Assembly (NCBI GenBank): GCA_039740895.1
Contig: JBCLGS010000001.1
Location: forward strand, 4,013 to 68,012
Direction: 5' to 3'
Length of the DNA stretch: 64,000 bases
Origin: Parcubacteria group bacterium
GTDB taxonomy: Bacteria > Patescibacteriota > Minisyncoccia > Phycocordibacterales > DATDWN01
The notes under the pieces: model-generated
Databases searched by the model: none
What the model was told of the DNA's origin: nothing
The model's input: only the letters and a program-made list of their open reading frames with translations
Translations under genes and position numbers: made by a program
Shown here: positions 7,257 to 63,746 of the stretch, in pieces
Layout: each line of letters opens with the position of its first letter
Numbering within the stretch: the first letter of the stretch is position 1

Positions 7257-7286
7257 AAAGTGTATATTACCATATCTTTCGTTTTC

Positions 7287-7564
7287 TCAAAACATGTCTT
7301 TTTTGAGACATTGCACAGGATATTAGAAAACAACGACGAAATTAAAGAAAGACCGAAGCACTGTTTGACGAAGTCGTAATCGACGAGGTGAGAAGCGAAG
7401 CTTCGCAAGACCTTGAGTATTTTGTAATCAAAATGCAAAAGGTGTACTGCTCCTGTAAGGAGTTTGCGAGAGGTCTTCGTAATGAGGAAGATTGTTTTCT
7501 TGATATCCGAGCATAGCAAAAGCCCACCAGGGCTTTCCGTGTCTCAAAAAAGACATGTTTTGAG
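7287..7564 (+). repeat. Structured palindromic element C1 carrying the conserved core (7389-7460)
   Basis: 25-bp perfect terminal inverted repeats (ctcaaaacatgtcttttttgagaca / tgtctcaaaaaagacatgttttgag). A 72-nt core is shared with 25727-25802 and 63641-63717. Confidence 0.8.
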
Positions 7565-7568
7565 ATTT

Positions 7569-8003
7569 TTATCTTTTTGACCACTGTGGGGCTTTTCGAG
7601 CTTTCTTCAGACCGAATTTTCTTCGCTCTTTAGCTCGGGGATCTCGTTTTAGGAATCCGGCTTTTTTCAAATCTTTTCGTAGGTCAGCTCTGTATTCAAC
7701 AAGCGCCCTTGCAACTCCGTGTCGCATAGCTTCTGCTTGTGAGTGGAGTCCTCCGCCGACAAGCTTTACTGTGACTAAGAATTTCTCTTCTGCACTAAGA
7801 CTTGCAAAAGGTTGCTTTACCACTACCTGCATTTCTTTTATTGAGAAGTATACGTGAAGTTCTTTGTCATTTACTTCAAACGACATCTTTGATGCTGGAG
7901 TGATGCGTATGCGGGCAATAGCGGTCTTTCGTCGTCCAACAGTTTCAATATATCTGTCGTCACTACTCTTGTTTATTTTTTTGATTGTTTTTATTTCAGC
8001 CAT
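7569..8003 (-). CDS. rpsI: 30S ribosomal protein S9
   Basis: C-terminus GGGLHSQAEAMRHGVARAL...RDPRAKERRKFGLKKARKAPQWSKR. Confidence 0.95.
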   Translation of the reverse strand: MAEIKTIKKINKSSDDRYIETVGRRKTAIARIRITPASKMSFEVNDKELHVYFSIKEMQVVVKQPFASLSAEEKFLVTVKLVGGGLHSQAEAMRHGVARALVEYRADLRKDLKKAGFLKRDPRAKERRKFGLKKARKAPQWSKR

Positions 8004-8354: not shown

Positions 8355-8371
8355 GTTTTTTACCTTATCAT

Positions 8372-8497
8372 AAACTTTCAAATTTGACCAAGGTCGCGTA
8401 TAAAATTTGAAAAAAAATTGGAGCCTACCTGAGTGCGTAGGCGACGATTCTTTTTCAGATTTTAGACGATGAAATTGGGCATAATTTGGAAGTTTTA
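8372..8497. repeat. Structured intergenic element A1
   Basis: ~125-nt imperfect palindrome with central hairpin gcctac-CTGAGTGC-gtaggc (8423-8442). Its end runs into the rplQ stop codon. Confidence 0.8.
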
Positions 8498-9859: not shown

Positions 9860-9941
9860 AAAATTTAATTAATATTAGATTATATTATTATATAAAAGCT
9901 TGTAAATTCTACACTAATTTTATAAATAAAGCAAGTTTTTT

Positions 9942-10067
9942 AAAACTTCCAAATTTAGCCAAGATCAAGTATAAAATTTGAAAAAGAATTGGAGCCTACC
10001 TGAGTGCGTAGGTGACGATTCTTTTTCAAATTTTAGACGATGAGATTGGTTATAATTTGGGAGTTTT
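9942..10067. repeat. Structured intergenic element A2
   Basis: 17-bp perfect arm aaaatttgaaaaagaat / attctttttcaaatttt and hairpin gcctac-CTGAGTGC-gtaggt. Its end overlaps the rpsD stop. Confidence 0.8.
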
Positions 10068-10674: not shown

Positions 10675-10696
10675 AATATGTTTATTAATTTATTTA

Positions 10697-10822
10697 AAAA
10701 CTTTCAAATTTGTTCAAGATCGCGTATAAAATCTGGAATTGAATTGAAGACGTACTGAGTGCTACGTCGCCAATTCAATTCTGGATTTTAGACGATGAGA
10801 TTGGACATAATTTGAATGTTTT
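10697..10822. repeat. Structured intergenic element A3
   Basis: Same architecture with different arms (ctggaattgaattg / caattcaattctgg) and hairpin gacgta-CTGAGTGC-tacgtc (10749-10768). Its end overlaps the rpsK stop. Confidence 0.8.
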
Positions 10823-11252: not shown

Positions 11253-11267
11253 TTTATTAATTTATTT

Positions 11268-11451
11268 AAAAACTTTCAAATTTGTTCAAGATCGCGTATA
11301 AAATCTGGAATTGAATTGAAGACGTACTGAGTGCTACGTCGCCAATTCAATTCTGGATTTTAGACGATGCTCCATTGTTTTCTTATGAGCAAAGCGAGTT
11401 AGAAAACAAGCAGTACCCTTGTGGCAAGATTGGACATAATTTGGAACTTTT
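11268..11451. repeat. Structured intergenic element A4 with nested 57-nt insertion (11370-11426)
   Basis: Near-identical to A3 over the first ~100 nt, then a 57-nt insert between gacgatg and agattgg. Its end overlaps the rpsM stop. Confidence 0.8.
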
Positions 11452-11870: not shown

Positions 11871-11988
11871 AAATTTCAAATATGGATGAAATCCGAGGCG
11901 GACGAGAATTTTGTTTGGAGCCGTACTTATCGTACGGTGACAAACAAAATTTGAAGTCCAACGATGGAGTTCGCCATATTTGAAATTT
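11871..11988. repeat. Structured intergenic element B1
   Basis: 15-bp perfect terminal inverted repeat aaatttcaaatatgg / ccatatttgaaattt and central hairpin ccgtac-ttatc-gtacgg. Related copy at 59182-59305. Confidence 0.75.
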
Positions 11989-12104
11989 TACCCTTGGCGC
12001 TGTTTGTGTCGGGCGTTGGATTTGCATGTAATATAAACATAGCCCTTTCTTCGGACTACTTGGCATTGCGCACATATTTTTTTAACTGATGATTTTACTT
12101 TCAT
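11988..12104 (-). CDS. rpmJ: 50S ribosomal protein L36 (not in ORF track)
   Basis: Hand translation: [38 protein letters not shown]. Sits between infA and rpsM as expected. Confidence 0.9.
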
Positions 12105-12360: not shown

Positions 12361-12481
12361 TTGTGCTTTTAAAGCGTTTCAAAACTACGAGGTACATACT
12401 AGCAGAAAAGCACTATATTAGTCAATACCTTATAGTATTCTTAATAACAAAATCTCAAAAATAGCCTCAAAATGTTCTTGC

Positions 12482-13060
12482 TTACAGCAAAACATTATTG
12501 ATGCATGATTTTTGTTGTGCAAAAATCAAAAACTCCCTATTTTTGCCCTTCTCGCCGAGGATTGGTGATTCTGTTTCAGAAAGGATTTCGAGACCGAGGG
12601 ATTTTAATTTTTCTCTAACTTTTTCCAAAACTTCCGGAATAAACTCCTCCTCTAGCTTCCCTTTACGAATCATTCTTTGCTCCGCCTCATAGTGTGGCTT
12701 TAGCAATACTATAATATGCCCACCTTCTTTCAAATTTAGCAGAACATTTGGAATGACTTTTTCTAATTTGGTCCAGCTGGTGTCCACAGATATTAAGTCT
12801 GGCTTTTCTGGTAGCAAAACATGCATGGCATTGTTTCTCTCTAGCACTACCACTCTTTTGTCCTTTCGAAGCTTCCAGTCCAAAACGCCATAGCCAGTCT
12901 CTACTGCATAAACCTTTAGAGCACCGTTCTGAAGTAGACAATCAACGAAACCGCCCGTACTGGAGCCAAAATCAGCACAAATAAGACCCTTGGGGCTAAA
13001 TCCAAAGGTTTTTAAGGCATGTTCCATCTTCTCCCCGGCACGAGATACATATATAGTCAT
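12482..13060 (-). CDS. tlyA: TlyA/FtsJ-like rRNA methyltransferase
   Basis: SAM-binding DFGSSTGGFVDCLLQNGA. The start is taken at Met44 (13060) because upstream codons are encoded by palindromic element C4. The last codons and stop lie in a 30-nt palindrome shared with mnmA. Confidence 0.75.
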   Translation of the reverse strand: MTIYVSRAGEKMEHALKTFGFSPKGLICADFGSSTGGFVDCLLQNGALKVYAVETGYGVLDWKLRKDKRVVVLERNNAMHVLLPEKPDLISVDTSWTKLEKVIPNVLLNLKEGGHIIVLLKPHYEAEQRMIRKGKLEEEFIPEVLEKVREKLKSLGLEILSETESPILGEKGKNREFLIFAQQKSCINNVLL

Positions 13061-13260
13061 TTGAATATATTTTTTAAGACACGCATAAAGCCTTGGTTGG
13101 CTTTTGCTATGCTCGGATATCAAGAAAACAATATACTCGATACATAGCCCTTTCGCAAACTCCTCGTCGAGTACGACTTCGTCAAACAATGCTTCGGGCT
13201 TATTTCATCTTCGTATTTGTTTTCTAATATCCTGTGCAATGTCTTAAAAAATATATTCAA
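13061..13260 (-). repeat. Structured palindromic element C4 (homolog of C1, inverted, core absent)
   Basis: 21-bp perfect terminal inverted repeat ttgaatatattttttaagaca / tgtcttaaaaaatatattcaa. The reverse complement aligns with both C1 arms but joins cgacgagg directly to agtttgcga. Confidence 0.8.
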
Positions 13261-13265
13261 ATGTC

Positions 13266-15964: not shown

Positions 15965-16600
15965 TTACTTAAGCATTTTTAAAAGTATAGGGTAGATTCT
16001 ATCAGCAATTTTTTGGTTTCCGATATCGTTTGGATGAATAGAATCCGCCATATATCTATCATCTGCTATTAAACCATCTAAAACATTTGAAACAAAAGCT
16101 GTATGATATTTATCTCTCAATTTTTCGAATTCGGTATCAAATTTATCACTCAGTATTCCACCTCTAATTCCAAGGAGTACCACAATAGTGCCTCTTCTTT
16201 GGAGGTCGGCGATTATTTTCTCCAAATCAATAAATGTTTCTTCTTTGGGAATTTTTTTTAAATAATCATTTCCACCAAAAAGAAGTAGGACAATTTTTGG
16301 ATGATATTTATCAAATTGGTTTAATCGAGCTATCCCGTCTGCTGTAGTATTTCCAGAAATTCCTAAGTTGATTATAGGGATACCTATTTTTTTTGAAAGA
16401 AGCGACACAAAATTTTTACTTTCGCTCGACGCTCCTGTTCCTACAATTAAACTATCTCCGAAAGCAATGATATCTGTTCCACTGGAAGGATAATTGACTA
16501 TTTTATCTTCTCGAATAAATTTGAAATAAAAAATAGCAAACAAAATAAATACGATTGAAACACATATAGCGTAAATGACTTTTTTGTTTATGGAATACAT
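15965..16600 (-). CDS. SGNH/GDSL hydrolase
   Basis: Block I FGDSL, block III GGNDY, block V DSIHPN, with an N-terminal TM anchor. Confidence 0.85.
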   Translation of the reverse strand: MYSINKKVIYAICVSIVFILFAIFYFKFIREDKIVNYPSSGTDIIAFGDSLIVGTGASSESKNFVSLLSKKIGIPIINLGISGNTTADGIARLNQFDKYHPKIVLLLFGGNDYLKKIPKEETFIDLEKIIADLQRRGTIVVLLGIRGGILSDKFDTEFEKLRDKYHTAFVSNVLDGLIADDRYMADSIHPNDIGNQKIADRIYPILLKMLK

Positions 16601-16966
16601 ATGATTATGGCTGTATCAAAGAAATTAGCTCTTTTTCTGACAAAACAGGAACTCCTTCTTTTAATGCTTTTTGGTACTTACTTCCAGGCTCATTTCCTAC
16701 TACTACGAATGAAGTCTGTTTTGAAACACTTTCTGTAATTTTCCCACCAAGTTCTTTAATTTTTTTCTTGGCATCATCACGACTCATTGTTTCAAGTGTA
16801 CCAGTAATGACAAAAGTTTTGCCAGCTAATTTCTGACTTATAGTCTGAGATTTATACGGTAATATAGAGACTCCATTTTTGAAAAGTTTTTCTATAAATT
16901 TCAAATTATCTTTATTTCGGAAATATTCAAAGACACTTTTAGAAACCACTGGTCCTATATTTTCAA
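16599..16966. repeat. 368-bp direct repeat, left copy (duplicate of ligA 3' end)
   Basis: Matches 18445-18812 at an offset of 1846. Both boundaries were mapped by eye and the encoded residues are identical. Confidence 0.85.
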
Positions 16967-17012: not shown

Positions 17013-18200
17013 TTAAACATCTTGCTGGGTATTTTGAGGAGCAGGCTCTCTTTTTCCAGCTATTGTGTTCATAATCTCAGGAAGTTTTTCAAGTTTTATA
17101 CGCTTAAGAAAATCAGTTGTTCCTTCACTTAATTTGTCTTGATTCATTAATTCTATTGCTTTTTTTAAATGTTTTTTAGTAAACTTCTCTTCGTACTTCC
17201 AGATACCTTTTTGTTCCAATTCATATTCAAGTACACGCTTACGAGCATCCATTTCCGTAGGATTAGAAAAATATTCATTATCCTCTTTTGCATCCGAGGA
17301 TAATGAACGATATGCTTTTTTGTACAATTTTTTAGCATACCTTGACATATATTTGTTATCATCTGTAATTGCATGCTGTCCTTCATGAAGAGCCACGGGT
17401 TCATTCATTAAATGAGCATCAGAGCTGATAATGTATTTACCTTCTAATTCAGGTCTTCCAGTTCCAGAATTATAAGAAATATACTCCCCAGCAACTCCTT
17501 TATCCAGAGGGTGATGTTGATCCTGAATTCTTAGATTGTCAGATACTGCAATACCTTTTCTACGTTCTATTTCCTCATCAGATAGACCCTCAAATTTCTT
17601 AGCTTTTAAAGCATATTCCGGAGAATGTACTACTCCTGCCAACCACCTTCTTTGGTCATCAGCATCTTTATAATTAAGTTCAGCTTCCATCTTAAGTTTA
17701 TTAAATTCAGATTCCCCTACTAAATTATATTCCCGATGAGTTTTTACATATTTTTTATACTTATCATAACTTTCAAATGCTATTCGTTGAGGATTATTTT
17801 TTTCAATTTCCACATGTGCTCTTTCACCATTCGTTGTTTGTGCTTCTATACCACCTGCCATAGAAGCTAGTACTCCTATAGCCATAATTTTTTTAAAACT
17901 TTTATATAATCCACTAGCTGAATCTTTGATGCCACTTAGTGCAGAATTTGTGCCACTTGATTCCATGCGTGATGTAACCTCATCAGAAGTAAATCCTAAT
18001 CTTTCACCAAAACCAATCACATTTGGAGTTACAGTGTCTGCTTTTTCGTCAAATGAAGCTATTTCCGCATCAGATTTTAGATCTAATTCTTTTATTTCTT
18101 CTGTTTCTGTTAAGGGTAATGCTTCGGGTGATACTTCGGGCAGTACGGTACCCTCTTTTAAAGACAAGTCATCTTCTTTTTGTTTTTGTTCAAAATTCAT
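17013..18200 (-). CDS. Hypothetical HExxH protein (putative Zn metallopeptidase-like), membrane-associated
   Basis: ALHEGQHAITD contains HExxH. One hydrophobic segment (IMAIGVLASMAGGI) and an acidic N-terminus. Confidence 0.6.
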   Translation of the reverse strand: MNFEQKQKEDDLSLKEGTVLPEVSPEALPLTETEEIKELDLKSDAEIASFDEKADTVTPNVIGFGERLGFTSDEVTSRMESSGTNSALSGIKDSASGLYKSFKKIMAIGVLASMAGGIEAQTTNGERAHVEIEKNNPQRIAFESYDKYKKYVKTHREYNLVGESEFNKLKMEAELNYKDADDQRRWLAGVVHSPEYALKAKKFEGLSDEEIERRKGIAVSDNLRIQDQHHPLDKGVAGEYISYNSGTGRPELEGKYIISSDAHLMNEPVALHEGQHAITDDNKYMSRYAKKLYKKAYRSLSSDAKEDNEYFSNPTEMDARKRVLEYELEQKGIWKYEEKFTKKHLKKAIELMNQDKLSEGTTDFLKRIKLEKLPEIMNTIAGKREPAPQNTQQDV

Positions 18201-18361: not shown

Positions 18362-18444
18362 TTGAGTTAGTTGGATTCAAGTTTCTAATACAAATAGTAT
18401 AACCTAATTGCACATGAACAACAAATCATATTCATTTTAAATGA

Positions 18445-22282
<3,838 letters not shown>

Positions 22283-24167: not shown

Positions 24168-25586
24168 TTATAGCGTTTTTTCGATAATTCCTCCGCCAAG
24201 ACACTTATCCCCCCGCCCGCCTCGACCATGAGAGCGTGTCGGGCAGGCATCATACAAAACAGCAGACTGTCCAACCGCCACGCCATTTTGAGGTTTGTCA
24301 AACTTAATTACATAACATGCAGGACTTTTTTTTGAGCTATCGAAAAAATGTTCTTGCTTACGCAAAACATTATTTTCGATCCGATTTTCCTTGTTGGAAA
24401 ATCGTCTGCGTTCTCGTGCAGAAGGCTCTCTTCTGCAAGTCCTACTAATAGTGCATTTTTGTTTTTCTTGACGATATCTTATTCGGACTAGACATTTTAG
24501 AGGAAGTTTTGGTTCGGTGTTTGAAATAAAATGCATATCTGAAACAACAACTTCAGAAGTGCTGAAAACATCCTCAGCTTCAGTTTCTTTATTTGCGACA
24601 GTAATGGTATTTTTATCCAAATCTTTTGCTACCACAAAATACCGAGGCTCATTTGGAGTTTTTTTCAAGATATTATATCCCTGTCTAGCACCTATGGTGT
24701 AAAAAATTGCACCATCGTGATATCCAATAACTTCACTACTAGTATTCAAAACATCTCCCCGTTTAGTTTTTATAAAGTGAGATAAAAATTCACGCATATC
24801 AAGTTTGCCCAAAAAACAAACCCCTTGGCTGTCTTTCTTTGTGGCTGTTGGTAAACCAAACTTTTCCGCGAGCTTCCGAACCTCTGGCTTTGTCATCCCA
24901 CCAATCGGAAAAAGTGAACGAGAAAGCTGTTCTTGATTCAGTGTGTATAAAAAATATGATTGATCTTTATTTTTATCAACTGATTCATGGAGTTGATACT
25001 CGTAATTAAAAATCTCTTTCTCGTCATATCCTTTGGGGAGCACGGATATTTTTCTGTTGAAAAATTCCTCAAGTCTCGCCTGCCCGGCTTGCGAAGTCTC
25101 CCCAAAGGATACGACATCAACGAGATTTTTTTTACTTATCAATCCTATTTGACTATAGTGACCAGTGGCAATAAAATCTGCACCCATCTCCAGTGCCTTT
25201 TTTAAAAAGACACCAAATTTTACATATTTATTACAAAAAACATCTGGGTTTGGAGTTCGTCCCATTTTATACTCTCTTATCATATAGTCAGCAACTTCTT
25301 TCTTGTATTCAGCTTCACAATCCATGGTCAGGAAAGGAACACCGAGTGTGGCGCAAACCCGCATAGCACTTCGTCTTTCTTCCTTCCAATCACATGGCAA
25401 AAAATCTGGATGCCAGGTCTTCAAAAATACACCTGTCACGTCGAAACCATCCCTAAACCCCTCTGGGGTCGGGCGACCAAATAATTTTTCAAAATTATTT
25501 GGTGTAGCCTTTTGTAAGAGCGCCAAAGCCACAGAGCTATCCACTCCACCTGAGACACCTACGAACACCTTTGGCTTTTTATTCAT
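24168..25586 (-). CDS. mnmA: tRNA 2-thiouridine(34) synthase MnmA with in-frame insertions
   Basis: PP-loop VGVSGGVDSSVA, GHY and a C-terminal LGGGII. It is longer than I recall for typical MnmA, owing to inserted segments. Confidence 0.9.
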   Translation of the reverse strand: MNKKPKVFVGVSGGVDSSVALALLQKATPNNFEKLFGRPTPEGFRDGFDVTGVFLKTWHPDFLPCDWKEERRSAMRVCATLGVPFLTMDCEAEYKKEVADYMIREYKMGRTPNPDVFCNKYVKFGVFLKKALEMGADFIATGHYSQIGLISKKNLVDVVSFGETSQAGQARLEEFFNRKISVLPKGYDEKEIFNYEYQLHESVDKNKDQSYFLYTLNQEQLSRSLFPIGGMTKPEVRKLAEKFGLPTATKKDSQGVCFLGKLDMREFLSHFIKTKRGDVLNTSSEVIGYHDGAIFYTIGARQGYNILKKTPNEPRYFVVAKDLDKNTITVANKETEAEDVFSTSEVVVSDMHFISNTEPKLPLKCLVRIRYRQEKQKCTISRTCRREPSARERRRFSNKENRIENNVLRKQEHFFDSSKKSPACYVIKFDKPQNGVAVGQSAVLYDACPTRSHGRGGRGDKCLGGGIIEKTL

Positions 25587-25623
25587 TCACAAGTTATAAC
25601 ATAAAATTAGAAGATGGTAAAAT

Positions 25624-25865
25624 AAAACAAACTAAATAATACCTTTTCTGAGACCCCGCAGACCTGAAGCAGGTTTTGTCAACGACCCGACTGAAAGGAG
25701 GGCTCATTGACAAATTCAGGTCGAGGTGAGAAGTGATAGTATCACTTCGCAAGACCTTGAGCGTCTGTAGTCAGATGCGAAAGGTGTACTGCTCCTGTAA
25801 GGAGAGAATTCAAAACCCGCTGGGGTTTTGAATGTTCTCAGAAAAGGTATTATTTAGTTTGTTTT
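25624..25865 (+). repeat. Structured palindromic element C2 carrying the conserved core (25727-25802)
   Basis: ~30-bp terminal inverted repeats (aaaacaaactaaataataccttttctgaga / tctcagaaaaggtattatttagtttgtttt). Its end overlaps the mltG stop. Confidence 0.8.
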
Positions 25866-26883
25866 ATTTGAGATATTTTTGCTTGTTAATAATATGCTCA
25901 GCAAAAGTTTTTGCGTAGTGAATTGTGCCATCTTTTTCTGTGAGAAAATAAAGATAATTTGTTTTTATAGGTGTATATGCGGCAATGATAGCATCGATAC
26001 CGGGGTTTGATATTGGTCCTATAGGAAGACCTTTATTTGTGTAAGTATTGTAAGGAGAATCTATTTTCAAATCATCCAAAGTTAATTCGTATGTATTTTT
26101 TCCATTTATATATTTAAAAGTCGCATCAACTTGTAGTGGCATACCGATAGCAATTCTTTTCCATAAAATACCTGCCACTATTTGTTTGTCTTTAGGAAGT
26201 GCCTCACCTTCAAGGATTGAAGCCATAATGATGATATCACTAATTGATTTTTTCGTCGTTTGAAGATTTGCAACTTGGAGAATTTTCTTATTGAAATTAT
26301 TCTTCATCAATTCTATAATGTCTGCAGGTTTCGCACTCATCGATACAAAATATGTATCAGGAAATAAATAGCCTTCATATTTTTTGGCTGAATCAACGAA
26401 TTCTTTTTTATTAAATTTCAATAAATTTTTCTCAAGATAATCCCCTATCTGAAATACATTCCAACCTTCTGGTATTGTAATTTTAATTGTATTGATTTGA
26501 AATACTCCATTAACCAGTCTGCGTGCCAACATGAACGAACTTTCTTTCTTGGACAACAAATAATCACCAGCGATAACCTTTTTTTCACCACCAAAAAGAA
26601 TAACCAGCGAACGGAAAACTAATTCCGAACCAATAATATTCTTATTCTTCAAATCAACTGTAATGGACTGGAGAGATTCTCCAAAGCGTATTGTCAAAAC
26701 ATCTCCAACAGGAAAATTTGTTGGTGTAGTGAACAAAAGAACAGAAATAAATGCAAAAATAAAAGCTGTAATAAAAGCTAAAATTGCTTTTGGTCTGGTA
26801 ACTTTCTGATATTCCACATACACCTTAACCTTTTCAGACCAAGATTTCAAAAAAATAATATATTTTGGGTCTTCCATAGGCAA
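25864..26883 (-). CDS. mltG: Endolytic transglycosylase MltG (YceG-like)
   Basis: N-terminal TM and a YceG domain (LEGYLFPDTY, ASILEGEA, SPYNTYTNKGLPIGPISNPG). Confidence 0.88.
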   Translation of the reverse strand: MPMEDPKYIIFLKSWSEKVKVYVEYQKVTRPKAILAFITAFIFAFISVLLFTTPTNFPVGDVLTIRFGESLQSITVDLKNKNIIGSELVFRSLVILFGGEKKVIAGDYLLSKKESSFMLARRLVNGVFQINTIKITIPEGWNVFQIGDYLEKNLLKFNKKEFVDSAKKYEGYLFPDTYFVSMSAKPADIIELMKNNFNKKILQVANLQTTKKSISDIIIMASILEGEALPKDKQIVAGILWKRIAIGMPLQVDATFKYINGKNTYELTLDDLKIDSPYNTYTNKGLPIGPISNPGIDAIIAAYTPIKTNYLYFLTEKDGTIHYAKTFAEHIINKQKYLK

Positions 26884-29303: not shown

Positions 29304-31766
29304 CTAGACAACAATACTCACCAACTTGAGAGGAACATATATAATCTTGCGTATTTCTTTGCCAGCGATCCACTTATCCACATCCTCCAATCTCTTCACA
29401 TATTCTATAATGTCCGCCTCTGACATATCTGAAGTGATAAATGTCTCGGCTCGAACCTTTCCATTGATTTGGATTGCTATTGTTATCTCAGTTTCTTTCA
29501 TTTTGTTTGGATCGGCTTTAGGCCAAGCTTCCGTGGACAGGATTTTTTTGTCCCCCAATTCAGCCCAAATCTCCTCCGTGACATGTGGTGCAAATGGTGA
29601 CAACACTTTCAAAAACATTTCGAAATCACTCTTTCTAATTTGTTCTATCTTATCCATAAAATTAACCAAAATCATCATTGAAGAAATAGCGGTATTGAAC
29701 CTCATACTCTCAATATCATCAGATACTTTTTTCACTGTCTTATGTAGAAGTGTTTCAAACTTTTTGTATTCCTCCGTGGTAAGGACCGTCCTTGCCATGT
29801 TTGTGTCAAAGACCGTCTTTGACACAACTTTATTTTGAATTTTCCAGACACGCTCAATAAACCTTCTGACACCTATTATATTGTCCTCACCCCAAGCAAT
29901 GGCTTGGTCAAAAGGACCCATAAACATTTCGTACATTCGGAGTGTATCCGCACCATAAGTTTTAACAATATCATCCGGATTTATAACATTACCTTTTGAC
30001 TTGGACATTTTCTCTCCATTTTTAGCTAAAATCATGCCGTGAGAGGTACGCTTTTTATAAGCTTCTGAAAATGGCACAAGTCCGATGTCGAACAAAAACT
30101 TATTCCAGAATCGTGAATATAAAAGGTGAAGTGTTGTATGTTCCATTCCGCCATTATACCAATCTACCTGCATCCAATATTTCAATTTTTTTATGTCTGC
30201 AAACTTTTTTGAATTTTTTGGATCACAATATCTCAAGAAATACCAAGAAGAACCAGCCCAGTTTGGCATTGTGTCTGTTTCTCTCTTTGCTTTTCCAAAA
30301 CACTTAGGACACTTCGTATTAACCCATTTTGAAATACCAGCAAGTGGAGACTCTCCGCTATTCGTAGGCTCATACTTTGCAATTTTTGGAAGCTTCAATG
30401 GTAAATCTTTTTCTGATAGCGGAACAACTCCGCACTTATCACAATGAACAACAGGAATTGGTTCTCCCCAATATCTCTGTCGTGAAAAAACCCAATCGCG
30501 AAGTTTATATTTCGTAACCCACTTTCCACCAACAAATTTTGTGATTTCTTTTTTTACTAATTCTGAATCCTGACCATCAAATTTTCCTGAGTTAATCATT
30601 TTTCCATCTCCAACATATGCAGAATTTCCATCTCCACCTGAAACCACAACCAAGACAGGCAAATTATATTTATTCGCAAAAGCAAAATCACGCTCATCAT
30701 GAGCAGGTACAGCCATCACAGCTCCTGTACCATATGTCGCAATCACATAGTCCGCGATAAAAACTGGAATTTCTTCATTATTTGCAGGATTAATTGCTAT
30801 CAACCCTTTTAGTTGTACACCAGTCTTTGCTTGCCCTGAGCCCGTCGAAGGGTCTTTTTCGTCTGCTGAGCGTTCTATTTCTGCCTTGGCTTTTGCTTTC
30901 ACTATATATTTTTCAACTTCTTCCCAATTTGAGATTTTAGATTTAAGATTTGAAACCAATTCATTTTCTGGAGCAAGTACAACATAAGTGGCGCCAAAAA
31001 TAGTATCCGGTCGTGTCGTAAAAACTTTTATTTCATCTTCAACATTTGAATTTGAACTTTTAATTTTAAAACCTATCTCCGCTCCCTCACTTCTTCCAAT
31101 CCAGTTTCTCTGTTGAAGTTTTATTTTTTCCAGGAAATCGACATCGTCCAAATCCTTATCTAGTTTATCAGCATATTTTGTTATGCGAAGCATCCACTGT
31201 TCCTTTTCGCGTTTCTCAACTGGCGTGCCACATCTTTCGCAACAACCACCAACAACTTCTTCATTTGCCAATCCAATTTTGTCCTTTGGACACCAATTTA
31301 TATTTATTTTAGCTTTGTATGCTAAATCATGTTTTAAAAACTGCAAGAAAAGCCACTGAGTCCATTTATAATATTTTGGGTCAGTGGTGTTTACTTCTCT
31401 GGACCAATCAAAAGAAAAGCCAATTGACTTTAACTGTCTTCGAAAGATGTCCGTGTTTATCTTGGTAACTTTTTCAGGAGAAATTCCAGTTTTAATAGCG
31501 TAGTTTTCTGTAGGTAATCCAAAAGCGTCCCATCCAATAGGATATAAAACATTAAACCCCTCCATCCGTCGTTTGCGAGCGATAATATCCATTGCTGTAT
31601 TACTACGAATATGCCCGACATGAAGTCCCTCGCCTGATGGATATGGAAATTCTATAAGTCCGTAAAATTTAGGTTTTTTTGAAAAATCAGAGGCATTAAA
31701 AACTTCTTTCTTTTCCCATTCTTTTTGCCATTTGGCTTCAATTTTTTTATGATCGTATTCTTTCAT
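29304..31766 (-). CDS. leuS: Leucine-tRNA ligase
   Basis: HVGH and KMSKS signatures, with editing domain. Confidence 0.96.
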   Translation of the reverse strand: MKEYDHKKIEAKWQKEWEKKEVFNASDFSKKPKFYGLIEFPYPSGEGLHVGHIRSNTAMDIIARKRRMEGFNVLYPIGWDAFGLPTENYAIKTGISPEKVTKINTDIFRRQLKSIGFSFDWSREVNTTDPKYYKWTQWLFLQFLKHDLAYKAKININWCPKDKIGLANEEVVGGCCERCGTPVEKREKEQWMLRITKYADKLDKDLDDVDFLEKIKLQQRNWIGRSEGAEIGFKIKSSNSNVEDEIKVFTTRPDTIFGATYVVLAPENELVSNLKSKISNWEEVEKYIVKAKAKAEIERSADEKDPSTGSGQAKTGVQLKGLIAINPANNEEIPVFIADYVIATYGTGAVMAVPAHDERDFAFANKYNLPVLVVVSGGDGNSAYVGDGKMINSGKFDGQDSELVKKEITKFVGGKWVTKYKLRDWVFSRQRYWGEPIPVVHCDKCGVVPLSEKDLPLKLPKIAKYEPTNSGESPLAGISKWVNTKCPKCFGKAKRETDTMPNWAGSSWYFLRYCDPKNSKKFADIKKLKYWMQVDWYNGGMEHTTLHLLYSRFWNKFLFDIGLVPFSEAYKKRTSHGMILAKNGEKMSKSKGNVINPDDIVKTYGADTLRMYEMFMGPFDQAIAWGEDNIIGVRRFIERVWKIQNKVVSKTVFDTNMARTVLTTEEYKKFETLLHKTVKKVSDDIESMRFNTAISSMMILVNFMDKIEQIRKSDFEMFLKVLSPFAPHVTEEIWAELGDKKILSTEAWPKADPNKMKETEITIAIQINGKVRAETFITSDMSEADIIEYVKRLEDVDKWIAGKEIRKIIYVPLKLVSIVV

Positions 31767-35943: not shown

Positions 35944-36105
35944 ATGAAATTATTATTCACTCAAAAAGTCTATGCAGTAGTCAAAAGAATTCCTAAAGGA
36001 AAAACTTTAATGTATAAAGAAGTAGCACGACATGCTGGTAGTCCTCTTGCATTTCGTGCAGTAGGAAATATCTTAAAAAAGAATTATTTCCATTCTTTCC
36101 GTTAG
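35944..36105 (+). pseudogene. Truncated MGMT/Ogt-family DNA-binding domain (53 aa, active-site PCHR missing)
   Basis: Hand translation: MKLLFTQKVYAVVKRIPKGKTLMYKEVARHAGSPLAFRAVGNILKKNYFHSFR. It stops just before the position where PCHRV is expected. Confidence 0.7.
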
Positions 36106-36246
36106 GATGAGATTATACTTTTTGGGAGACTTGCGAACGCGACTGGCGTGAGTACGAGGAATTTTCTAGTAAGAAAATATCCGTGCTCCCAAGAAAACCT
36201 GTTCAAAACCAGAATTATTTGGTACTATCATGATAGGAGGAATTCA

Positions 36247-36853: not shown

Positions 36854-36939
36854 AATCAGACTATATATTCAAGTCAAAGTATTGTATATTAATTTTACAA
36901 CTAAATAGTTAGTAGTAGCCTAAACCAGTAATGATACAG

Positions 36940-37052
36940 GTATGGCAAAGGTCCAGTTAGACATCAAAGAACCAATCATGGGGTTGTCTAACTGGCCATA
37001 TCGGGAAACCGATATGAGTGACTTCGGTCACTACCTATGTGGTGGGCTTTTT
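36940..37052 (+). ncRNA. Candidate structured RNA or leader (unclassified)
   Basis: Three hairpins: an 11-bp stem 36953-36963/36985-36995; catatcgg-GAAA-ccgatatg (36997-37016); agtgac-UUCG-gtcact (37017-37032). A GGGCUUUUU tract follows. Confidence 0.45.
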
Positions 37053-59181: not shown

Positions 59182-59305
59182 AAAAACTTTTATAATTTGA
59201 ATGAAATCCGAGACGGACAAAAAATTTGTGCGAAACCGTACTCCTGTACGGTGACAAACAAATTTTGAAGTCCAACGATGGAGTTCGTCAAATTTGAAAG
59301 TTTTT
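59182..59305. repeat. Structured intergenic element B2
   Basis: Shares atgaaatccgag, hairpin ccgtac-tcct-gtacgg, gtgacaaacaaa and gaagtccaacgatggagttcg with B1. Confidence 0.75.
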
Positions 59306-63583: not shown

Positions 63584-63746
63584 ACCCAAAAATTTTCCTT
63601 CCTTTCTGATTTAATTCGGCGGGGGGTGTGGGGGGTGAGGTGCGACAACTGGAAGCACCGCAAGATCTTGAGCATTTTGTAATCAAAATGTGAAAGGTGT
63701 ACAGTTTCTGTAAGAAAACGACAAAAAATGGAAAGGAAATTTTTGG
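63584..63746 (+). repeat. Structured element C3 carrying the conserved core (63641-63717)
   Basis: Outer stem ccaaaaattttccttcc / ggaaaggaaatttttgg. The core shares GCAAGAYCUUGAG, the attttgtaatcaaaat hairpin and AAAGGUGUAC with C1 and C2. Confidence 0.7.

Follow-up and report, generated by a model that had tools for sequence, protein, structure and literature searches.

A small double-hairpin element, probably mobile, carried in frame by mnmA in a genome of the Patescibacteria

We analyzed a stretch of 64,000 nucleotides (nts) of contig JBCLGS010000001.1 from a Parcubacteria group bacterium (assembly GCA_039740895.1), hereafter called the window, and focused on a palindromic segment inside its mnmA gene. 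The G+C content of the window is 35%, and the host is judged from the names of the orthologs to belong to the Patescibacteria (Paceibacterota-like). The gene mnmA, which encodes tRNA 2-thiouridine synthase, is located at 24168-25586 on the minus strand. It is intact, and its product of 472 residues carries the tRNA_Me_trans HUP, PRC-barrel and C-terminal domains of Pfam. MnmA orthologs have 356-445 residues, mostly 356-380, and the window protein retains every column that is invariant across 120 close orthologs, the set used for all counts of inserts below. The closest relative is protein P0002 on contig L001 (GCA_039740855.1), which is syntenic with the window and 95% identical in DNA. Outside the insert zones the two mnmA genes are 97-99% identical, and the 19 synonymous versus 4 non-synonymous differences outside the inserts indicate purifying selection. 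Judging from the few non-synonymous changes and the retained invariant residues, the mnmA gene of the window is functional.

Alignment with the orthologs places 39 extra residues (TCRREP...SSKKS) between ...CTISR and PACYVIKF of the window MnmA, in good agreement with the original prediction of about 40. The 39 codons, TCRREPSARERRRFSNKENRIENNVLRKQEHFFDSSKKS, were delimited by tblastn and the ortholog alignment to 24324-24440 on the minus strand, and this position is referred to as site 2. Among the 120 orthologs, residues at site 2 are found only in the window (38-39 residues) and in P0002 (6 residues), and therefore the insert is not ancestral; the ancestral domain feature considered as an alternative in the original prediction is not what the orthologs display. 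These alignments show that the site-2 insertion is real and specific to the lineage of the window.

In the pairwise DNA alignment, 99 nts of the window (33 codons; 24318-24416, minus strand) are missing in L001. We read them as a 90-nt element plus one copy of a 9-bp direct repeat, where the placement is ambiguous by a few bases inside the repeat. By this comparison, the 99-nt segment is a recent insertion. It is a multiple of three in length and contains no stop in the mnmA frame, and the same divisibility holds for the other segments absent from L001, 36 nts at another mnmA site and 27 nts in leuS.

Under the direct-repeat model the inferred boundaries of the element proper are 24327 and 24416 (90 nts, minus strand), and three hairpins follow one another on this strand, as predicted. 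The one named hp3 (24339-24380) has an imperfect 19-bp stem and a ttac loop, and contains a 30-mer that is common to a second gene, described below. The next, hp2 (24382-24404), has a perfect 9-bp stem and reads CGATTTTCC-aacaa-GGAAAATCG in the mRNA sense (ttgtt in the forward-strand loop). The remaining one, hp1 (24417-24437), was predicted to have a 7-bp stem with a gctctc loop; it actually has 8 bp (tgcagaag/cttctgca) and a 5-nt loop. This hairpin is older, since it is also present in L001 as TCTGCAGAAG-AGAGC-CTCCTGCAGA, and it belongs to an 18-nt insert encoding the six residues (T/I)CRREP, which are ICRREP in L001. The 3′ arm of hp1 was apparently the target of the 99-nt insertion. A 151-nt region around the segment folds at -51.5 kcal/mol, compared with -27.3 ± 3.4 for shuffled sequences (z = -7.1), and none of 200 shuffles folded as well; the z value of the extra-segment RNA ranges from -6.4 to -7.1. 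The fold is closed by an outer stem in which AGGACTT (24321-24327) pairs with AAGTCCT (24437-24443).

The 30-mer of hp3 (24345-24374) occurs again at 12469-12499 with one extra base (31 nts, 96.8% identity, BLAST E = 1e-7), at the 3′ end of a tlyA-like gene where the original prediction had placed it, and no match with up to three mismatches arose in 100 shuffles. This gene (12482-13060, minus strand; Pfam FtsJ) encodes an rRNA methyltransferase of the FtsJ family with 192 residues. The extra base gives CTGTAAG, and its TAA (12482-12484) is the stop codon of the open reading frame (ORF). The 30-mer is part of a second, 70-nt copy of the double hairpin (12457-12526, minus strand), which scores 93.9 bits with the covariance model R1 described below and lies in the last tlyA codons with the stop codon in the loop of hp3. 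On the minus strand it is flanked by an upstream direct repeat, GAGTTTTTG (12527-12535), and a downstream one, GAGATTTTG (12448-12456), which has 8 of the 9 bases of the upstream repeat. Beyond the latter lies the displaced native C-terminus, TTA TTA AGA ATA CTA TAA, encoding LLRIL and a stop (12430-12447, minus strand), so that the creation of a stop codon by the palindrome, also predicted, is borne out. TlyA orthologs have 181-193 residues and end in ...GKNKEFLLYLKxx. When the element and one repeat (79 nts) are excised virtually, the gene ends in ...GKNREFLLLRIL-stop, resembling the ortholog ends GKNREFLIYLKN and GKNKEFLLYLKQE. Thus a sister copy probably landed in the last codons of tlyA, where its 79 nts shift the frame, replace the last five residues and bring a new stop; the length of this copy is not a multiple of three, but it is located in the last codons. 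We also considered that the hp2-like hairpin of tlyA is native coding sequence, because its LIF fits the ortholog motif. This was rejected, as the same hairpin is found elsewhere in contigs L037 and L041 and excision restores a native-like C-terminus downstream. On another Paceibacteria contig (L030:610-660), a perfect 19-bp hairpin overlaps the end of tlyA: the last codons make up its 5′ arm, and its loop holds the stop codon TGA. Hairpins overlapping gene ends seem to be common in Paceibacteria.

The mnmA and tlyA copies have not only hp3 but also hp2 in common, at the same spacing, with compensatory changes (GATTTTCC/GGAAAATC versus GATTTTTG/CAAAAATC); 5 of the 23 base pairs are compensatory between the two. 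The model R1, which was built from these two copies, detected only them in the window, even with filters off, and two more outside it, L037:604-687 and L041:4902-4985 (E about 1e-7), on independent metagenomic Paceibacteria contigs. Both of these are inside mnmA in sense orientation, in a different loop (site 1, right after ATGHYA). In all four copies hp2 is kept, with compensatory changes, and a fifth match, L049, is borderline (E = 0.012). When the five matches including L049 were aligned, 99% of the cells paired and 12 of the 23 pairs changed on both sides, a result that none of 500 shuffles reached, in an alignment that was fitted to R1 and hence favours structure; in controls with slid partners only 40-64% paired. 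These comparisons show that the double-hairpin structure is conserved and covarying across the family. The consensus of the module is YGATTTY..-NACNA-..RAAATCR, usually followed by TGCA and then by an imperfect hairpin of 15-19 bp, with a unit of ~65 nts. Because mnmA of L037 and of L041 are 80% identical in DNA, their copy is probably orthologous, with stems kept by compensatory change, and by sequence comparison the one module accounts for three independent insertion events. The encoded peptide differs among copies, which are read in different frames. A pattern for the hp3 core, ATGTTTTGC-N3-6-GCAAGAACAT, gave 26 single matches to genome contigs from unrelated phyla; the source genome was outside that set, and these matches have no bearing on copy number. 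The concern that the 30-mer match might be unique and due to chance is answered by the second hairpin with its compensatory changes and by the further members in L037 and L041.

The position of the insert in the protein was examined with an AlphaFold2 model built from 120 sequences (mean confidence 83, core above 90), the core of which agrees with the E. coli MnmA-tRNA structures (TM-score 0.89-0.91; 0.91 for 2DEU). The window MnmA has three inserts that appear in the model as low-confidence excursions between consecutive strands: residues 148-193 at site 1 (between strands E145-151 and E195-201), residues 383-421 at site 2 (confidence 48-73, between E376-383 and E424-433) and residues 447-458 at site 3 (between E441-446 and E461-471). 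In E. coli numbering, site 2 lies between residues 334 and 344. The model thus shows site 2 at the turn between adjacent β-strands of the C-terminal barrel, in keeping with the surface loop suspected in the original prediction.

The site-1 insert of the window is a Y-shaped palindrome unrelated to the double-hairpin element (25008-25145, core 25030-25110; z = -8.2), which adds 46 residues and has 33-nt inverted arms enclosing two inner hairpins. It bears on the question whether such inserts are translated. In L001 the same element (7566-7646) has a 7-nt deletion on one side and a 5-nt deletion on the other; the core is in a different frame (RLRKAGSRDLRNFSPEKYPYS versus GETSQAGQARLEEFFNRKISV) and the frame is restored afterwards. 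Restoration of the frame matters only if the insert is translated, and the compensating indels therefore argue for translation. With a model for this element (R2), matches were found in mnmA of L033 and L035 in the opposite orientation (L033:2781-2864), where the frame is still open, and outside genes in the window (36116-36196) and in L032 (9359-9490). In addition, 57 metagenomic mnmA loci (L032-L088) were retrieved by a peptide pattern and tblastn, independently of gene calling, and every full-length mnmA among them gave one uninterrupted single-frame tblastn match, with inserts of 5-46 residues. In four of the six frames the 99-nt insert has no stop codon, a value equalled by 2 of 5000 shuffles; the real significance is weaker because palindromy links both strands. 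From these data the insert would be translated rather than removed from the mRNA.

The junctions give an indication of how the element arrived. The mnmA repeats in the mRNA sense are CCTTCTGCA (24417-24425) and AGTCCTGCA (24318-24326), and the empty site of L001, CCTCCTGCA, matches them. At both window copies the direct repeats are 9 bp long and imperfect. Judged from these two cases only, both pairs look like imperfect 9-bp target duplications, and both copies appear to abut a pre-existing small hairpin, the 3′ arm of which is the duplicated stretch. The left flanks of the copies differ (...CTGCA versus ...TTTTG). An explanation of the closing stem as a mere product of the direct repeats was dropped since a base-by-base fit fails. 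The imperfect 9-bp repeats suggest that the element moved by a staggered-cut event.

Taken together, the site-2 segment is probably one copy of a mobile element that is small (about 70-90 nts), non-autonomous and made of two tandem hairpins, and that is translated and tolerated by its host gene. The element would have inserted beside the older mini-hairpin, in the turn between two strands of the C-terminal barrel. As the 99 nts are a multiple of three without an in-frame stop, transcription and translation of the insert would yield a surface loop of 33 residues that is basic and probably disordered (39 residues for the whole segment), and the enzyme would stay functional. The element most likely acts as selfish or neutral DNA, with copies surviving only where the host protein tolerates them, namely in permissive loops, the ends of genes and spacers; survival limited to such places would explain why inserts recur at the same loops. 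The pairing of the hairpins may be kept by intrastrand template switching or by selection.

Several points weigh against this interpretation. The direct repeats match at only 8/9 and about 7/9 positions and lie in AT-rich or repetitive sequence, and they could be due to chance or microhomology. The copies have no terminal inverted repeats in common, the termini of the 90-nt and 70-nt copies being different, and no transposase was matched among the 54 window ORFs (of 59 long ORFs) scanned against Pfam. The outer closing stems differ between the copies and use host flanks, a feature not foreseen by a simple cut-and-paste model. The "repeat family" is based on four firm copies in three organisms, with two copies per 64 kb in the window. 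Furthermore, the last ~340 nts of mnmA (24168-24500) are only 72-82% identical to L001, compared with 97-99% for the 1080 nts upstream, and the gene next to mnmA is 100% identical over the 114 nts covered by L001. This low-identity tract suggests recombination or mutation linked to the elements, and because the 3′ third of the gene diverges in this way, the presence/absence difference could reflect replacement of an allele by recombination rather than a fresh insertion. Finally, hairpins kept over 20% DNA divergence could point to function rather than junk.

One rival reading takes the double hairpin for an RNA or single-stranded DNA structure with a function of its own, maintained by selection. 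It might act in cis, for example on the stability of the mRNA, its processing by RNase, the pausing of ribosomes or the binding of a protein, with the peptide as a by-product. The covariation at 12 of 23 pairs and the pairing of the orthologous L037 and L041 copies speak for it, as do the lack of conservation of peptide and frame and the fact that just two coding segments of the window reach a fold z of -5 or below, each of them located in mnmA. However, the copies occupy unrelated positions (mnmA site 2, mnmA site 1, the tlyA 3′ end) and are missing from most orthologs and from the 95%-identical strain, and template switching at quasi-palindromes can give apparent compensation without selection. 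Nor does the element match any Rfam family at the gathering score; even at E = 10, the best overlap was sub-threshold, at 15.8 bits and E = 5, which is noise. A promoter and terminator scan of both copies gave no terminator-like site inside the elements. The hairpin loops are variable, unlike the anticodon loops of the MnmA substrates, and the notion that they mimic tRNA anticodon arms for MnmA autoregulation was rejected, because the loops have 4-5 nts, vary, and lack UUC, UUU and UUG. In a folding scan of 48 loci, strongly folding segments have a density of 0.44 per 10 kb in mnmA, 0.37 in other long ORFs and 2.8 elsewhere. The similar densities in mnmA and other long ORFs also speak against mnmA as a specific target, and other genes have recurrent sites of their own; certain permissive loops collect inserts, and mnmA is no special target. 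We therefore regard a selected function of the double hairpin as unlikely.

Alternatively, there may be no dedicated mobile element at all, the hairpins having arisen by local strand-switch or fold-back errors and the likeness of mnmA and tlyA by one ectopic copy or gene conversion. Closing stems made of host flanks that differ between copies fit such errors, as do the missing terminal inverted repeats and transposase in the window, the pre-existing small hairpin adjoining both insertions, and the covariation of the site-1 arms between two strains with 97-99% identical flanks. Nevertheless, the same module, with the same order, spacing and hp2 sequence (YGATTTY..ACNA..RAAATCR), recurs at three independent sites, and the MnmA proteins of the organisms concerned are only about 64% identical; local fold-back cannot produce such a recurrence. 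In addition, both window copies are flanked by direct repeats of similar length. We consider this explanation quite unlikely.

Removal of the insert from the mRNA as an intervening sequence (intron-like or bulge-helix-bulge-like), or ribosomal bypass of it (compare gene 60 of phage T4 and mitochondrial 'byp'), would agree with the compact structure, with the closing stem that joins the two flanks and with the CTGCA repeats at both junctions. This is very improbable, since all the inserts examined are stop-free multiples of three, the 7-nt and 5-nt indels of L001 restore the frame, the sister family works in both orientations, and no ribozyme or intron family is matched; moreover, a segment of 90-117 nts is below the size of known self-splicing introns. 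An assembly artefact or chance similarity is hardly conceivable, for although the 99-nt insert is seen in one metagenome-assembled contig only, it is in frame, the family was recovered from the independent assemblies L037 and L041, hp1 and the site-1 element are also in the independent assembly L001, and shuffles gave no chance match to the 30-mer.

The double-hairpin element is accompanied by other palindromic inserts in the same gene. At site 1, about 45 of the 120 orthologs have inserts (47 have at least 5 extra residues), and these belong to a few recurring peptide families in which the same DNA is read in different frames and orientations. The site-3 insert, ACPTRSHGRGGR (24213-24248), is a 36-nt hairpin of 75% G+C, in frame near the MnmA C-terminus and missing in L001 and in all 119 other orthologs. 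A fourth extra segment, TPNNFEKLFGRPTPEGFRD (25452-25508), contains a perfect 12-bp palindrome (25476-25503); 7 of the 120 orthologs have an insert at this place, which was seen in P0002, P0003, P0004 and P0012. In contrast to the other inserts, its amino acids are conserved in a few orthologs that are only about 60% identical, and it may be an old insert that is now fixed.

Similar inserts are found in other genes. The 27 nts of leuS missing in L001 are a GC-rich in-frame insert (…DPSTGSGQA…; 30829-30852 and 30867-30869), and leuS also has a perfect 12-bp palindrome at 29801-29827. For the whole window, perfect hairpins with a stem of at least 9 bp gave 28 overlapping calls (~17 distinct loci), compared with 0-6 (mean 2) in shuffles, and about ten of the ~17 loci fall in long ORFs. 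Perfect GC-rich in-frame palindromes of 20 bp or more (CCAAGG/CCTAGG/CCTCGG-type) have one recurrent site in a Mur-ligase-like gene, identified by eye (…DANLRLP|insert|FVAEACEY…; L044:3341, L045:3841, L047:3101, L066:1221, L084:2261), and further ones lie in a HolB-like gene, also identified by eye (L041:1621), and at another mnmA site (L036:5861). The peptides PRTPLG and PRGVLG are encoded by the two strands of one palindrome.

The window contains several more repeats, mostly outside genes. Between yceG and mnmA lies a structured element of ~250 nts (25620-25869) with 59-nt inverted arms, a conserved inner 30-mer ATGCGAAAGGTGTACTGCTCCTGTAAGGAG and no Rfam match, which has other sites at 7285-7565, 13058-13263, 63652-63714 and L001:8404-8483. 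L001 has nothing at the corresponding place and carries its copy downstream of mnmA instead; by this comparison the ~250-nt element is another mobile repeat. A 117-nt repeat, each copy of which is a 32-nt inverted repeat around an 8-nt loop (z = -5 to -7), occurs four times in spacers of the ribosomal-protein/rpoA operon (8355-8471, 9926-10042, 10681-10797, 11253-11369). A strongly folding repeat of ~115 nts has two copies that are 78-93% identical (11874-11989 and 59189-59303; z = -6.6 and -4.0), one of them between rpsM and rpmJ. The 3′ end of ligA, where BRCT is encoded, is duplicated as a direct repeat of 300 nts (16594-16893 and 18440-18739, 99% identical), and the two copies flank an ORF of 395 residues (17013-18200) without a Pfam match; this looks like an insertion that brought a replacement gene end. 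Near the intergenic copy of the site-1 element, a 53-residue ORF (35944-36105) looks, by eye, like the beginning of a DNA-binding domain of the MGMT type (…AFRAVGNILKKN…); it ends ~10 nts short of that copy, the insertion of which may have truncated it. About 700 nts from the same copy, a LOOT RNA (Rfam RF03000, 73.7 bits) is located at 36917-37032.

A wider reading of these observations is that Paceibacteria harbor a so far undescribed system of mobile single- or double-hairpin DNA without terminal inverted repeats, which inserts at the 3′ arm of existing hairpins with ~9-bp duplications, piles up palindromes in nested clusters where essential genes (MnmA, Mur-ligase-like, LeuRS, HolB-like) have permissive loops, and has its stems actively kept paired over long divergence. 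We regard this as doubtful; if true, it would imply that hairpins within coding sequence serve the host in some way, or that a novel recombinase acts specifically on hairpins. The results have consequences at several levels. For annotation, proteins of this phylum that seem too long or have odd loops of low complexity probably contain inserted repeats rather than new domains. In terms of protein evolution, the inserts amount to insertion scans made by nature, which reveal where loops are permissive, and in strain typing, filled and empty sites separate close strains. For the biology of mobile elements, stems that are kept paired are of interest.

Mitochondria reportedly have comparable units, the double-hairpin and 'byp' elements, which are short and mobile, consist of one or two hairpins and invade the coding regions of genomes that are compact. 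The byp elements are said to be skipped by the ribosome, to need no reading frame and to reside in organelles, whereas the present element is always in frame and bacterial; the mnmA insert is not an out-of-frame or stop-containing gap in the coding sequence. It also has no match to a curated Rfam model of a self-splicing intron or ribozyme.

Repetitive extragenic palindromic (REP) sequences and REPINs, mobilized by RAYT, and the hairpin derivatives of IS200/IS605 are similar to the element in being imperfect palindrome units without terminal inverted repeats. REPs, however, are extragenic, have 20-40 nts and carry a conserved GTAG head, whereas the element is intragenic, has ~65 nts with two different hairpins and lacks a GTAG head. 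IS200/IS605 elements make no target duplication and insert 3′ of a fixed tetra- or pentanucleotide, in contrast to the flanking direct repeats and the differing left flanks found here; neither a RAYT nor a TnpA (Y1-transposase) gene was matched in the window.

Miniature transposable elements with inverted repeats (MITEs) and small ORF-fused repeats, such as QMITE of Coxiella, BOX, RUP and SPRITE of pneumococcus, BRE of Bordetella and ERIC (PMC5896051, PMC3184786), resemble the element in being small, structured and without ORFs, in lying inside genes or extending their 3′ ends, as does the tlyA copy, and in having flanking direct repeats, which here are imperfect. The terminal inverted repeats that define MITEs are lacking here, and no parental insertion sequence was seen in the window. 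Repeats fused inside genes or extending gene 3′ ends have been described before (PMC10969869, PMC3184786), and existing hairpins are known as insertion targets (PMC3184786).

The closest likeness is that to the Rickettsia palindromic elements (RPEs; Ogata et al. 2000, cited after PMC10969869 and PMC3184786), to which the element is likened by its behaviour, a relationship in sequence not being expected. Both are hairpin-forming and about 100 nts long, insert in frame in housekeeping genes and also occur outside genes; both have several unrelated families per lineage and hosts with small, reduced genomes, and both would be translated as an extra surface segment that leaves the enzyme intact, which for our element is predicted from the sequence and the structural model. 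The stable hairpin of ~100-150 nts that characterizes RPEs is found here (z = -7.1 over 151 nts, with three hairpins and a closing stem), the 99-nt and 117-nt mnmA segments are in frame and leave the ORF intact, and residues 383-421 lie between strands of the model at a position compatible with the fold. The element differs in its Patescibacteria host, in its two tandem hairpins with a variable closing stem and in its copy number, which in the sequence analyzed is low, 2 per 64 kb compared with tens per Rickettsia genome. According to PMC10969869, a conserved peptide is encoded by each RPE family, whereas the peptide is not conserved here, being read in different frames. The analogy with RPEs proposed in the original prediction is thus upheld by an insert that is in frame, located at a turn and missing in the 95%-identical strain. 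In-frame palindromic "selfish DNA" in housekeeping genes, best known from Rickettsia, would now extend to the Patescibacteria, which also have very small genomes. In these bacteria there are several element families, some loops receive inserts again and again, and two nearly identical strains read one element in different frames. A limited literature search gave no account of such elements for Patescibacteria or for the Candidate Phyla Radiation. The element resembles the known, RPE-like kind and is part of a pattern across the phylum that apparently has not been described.

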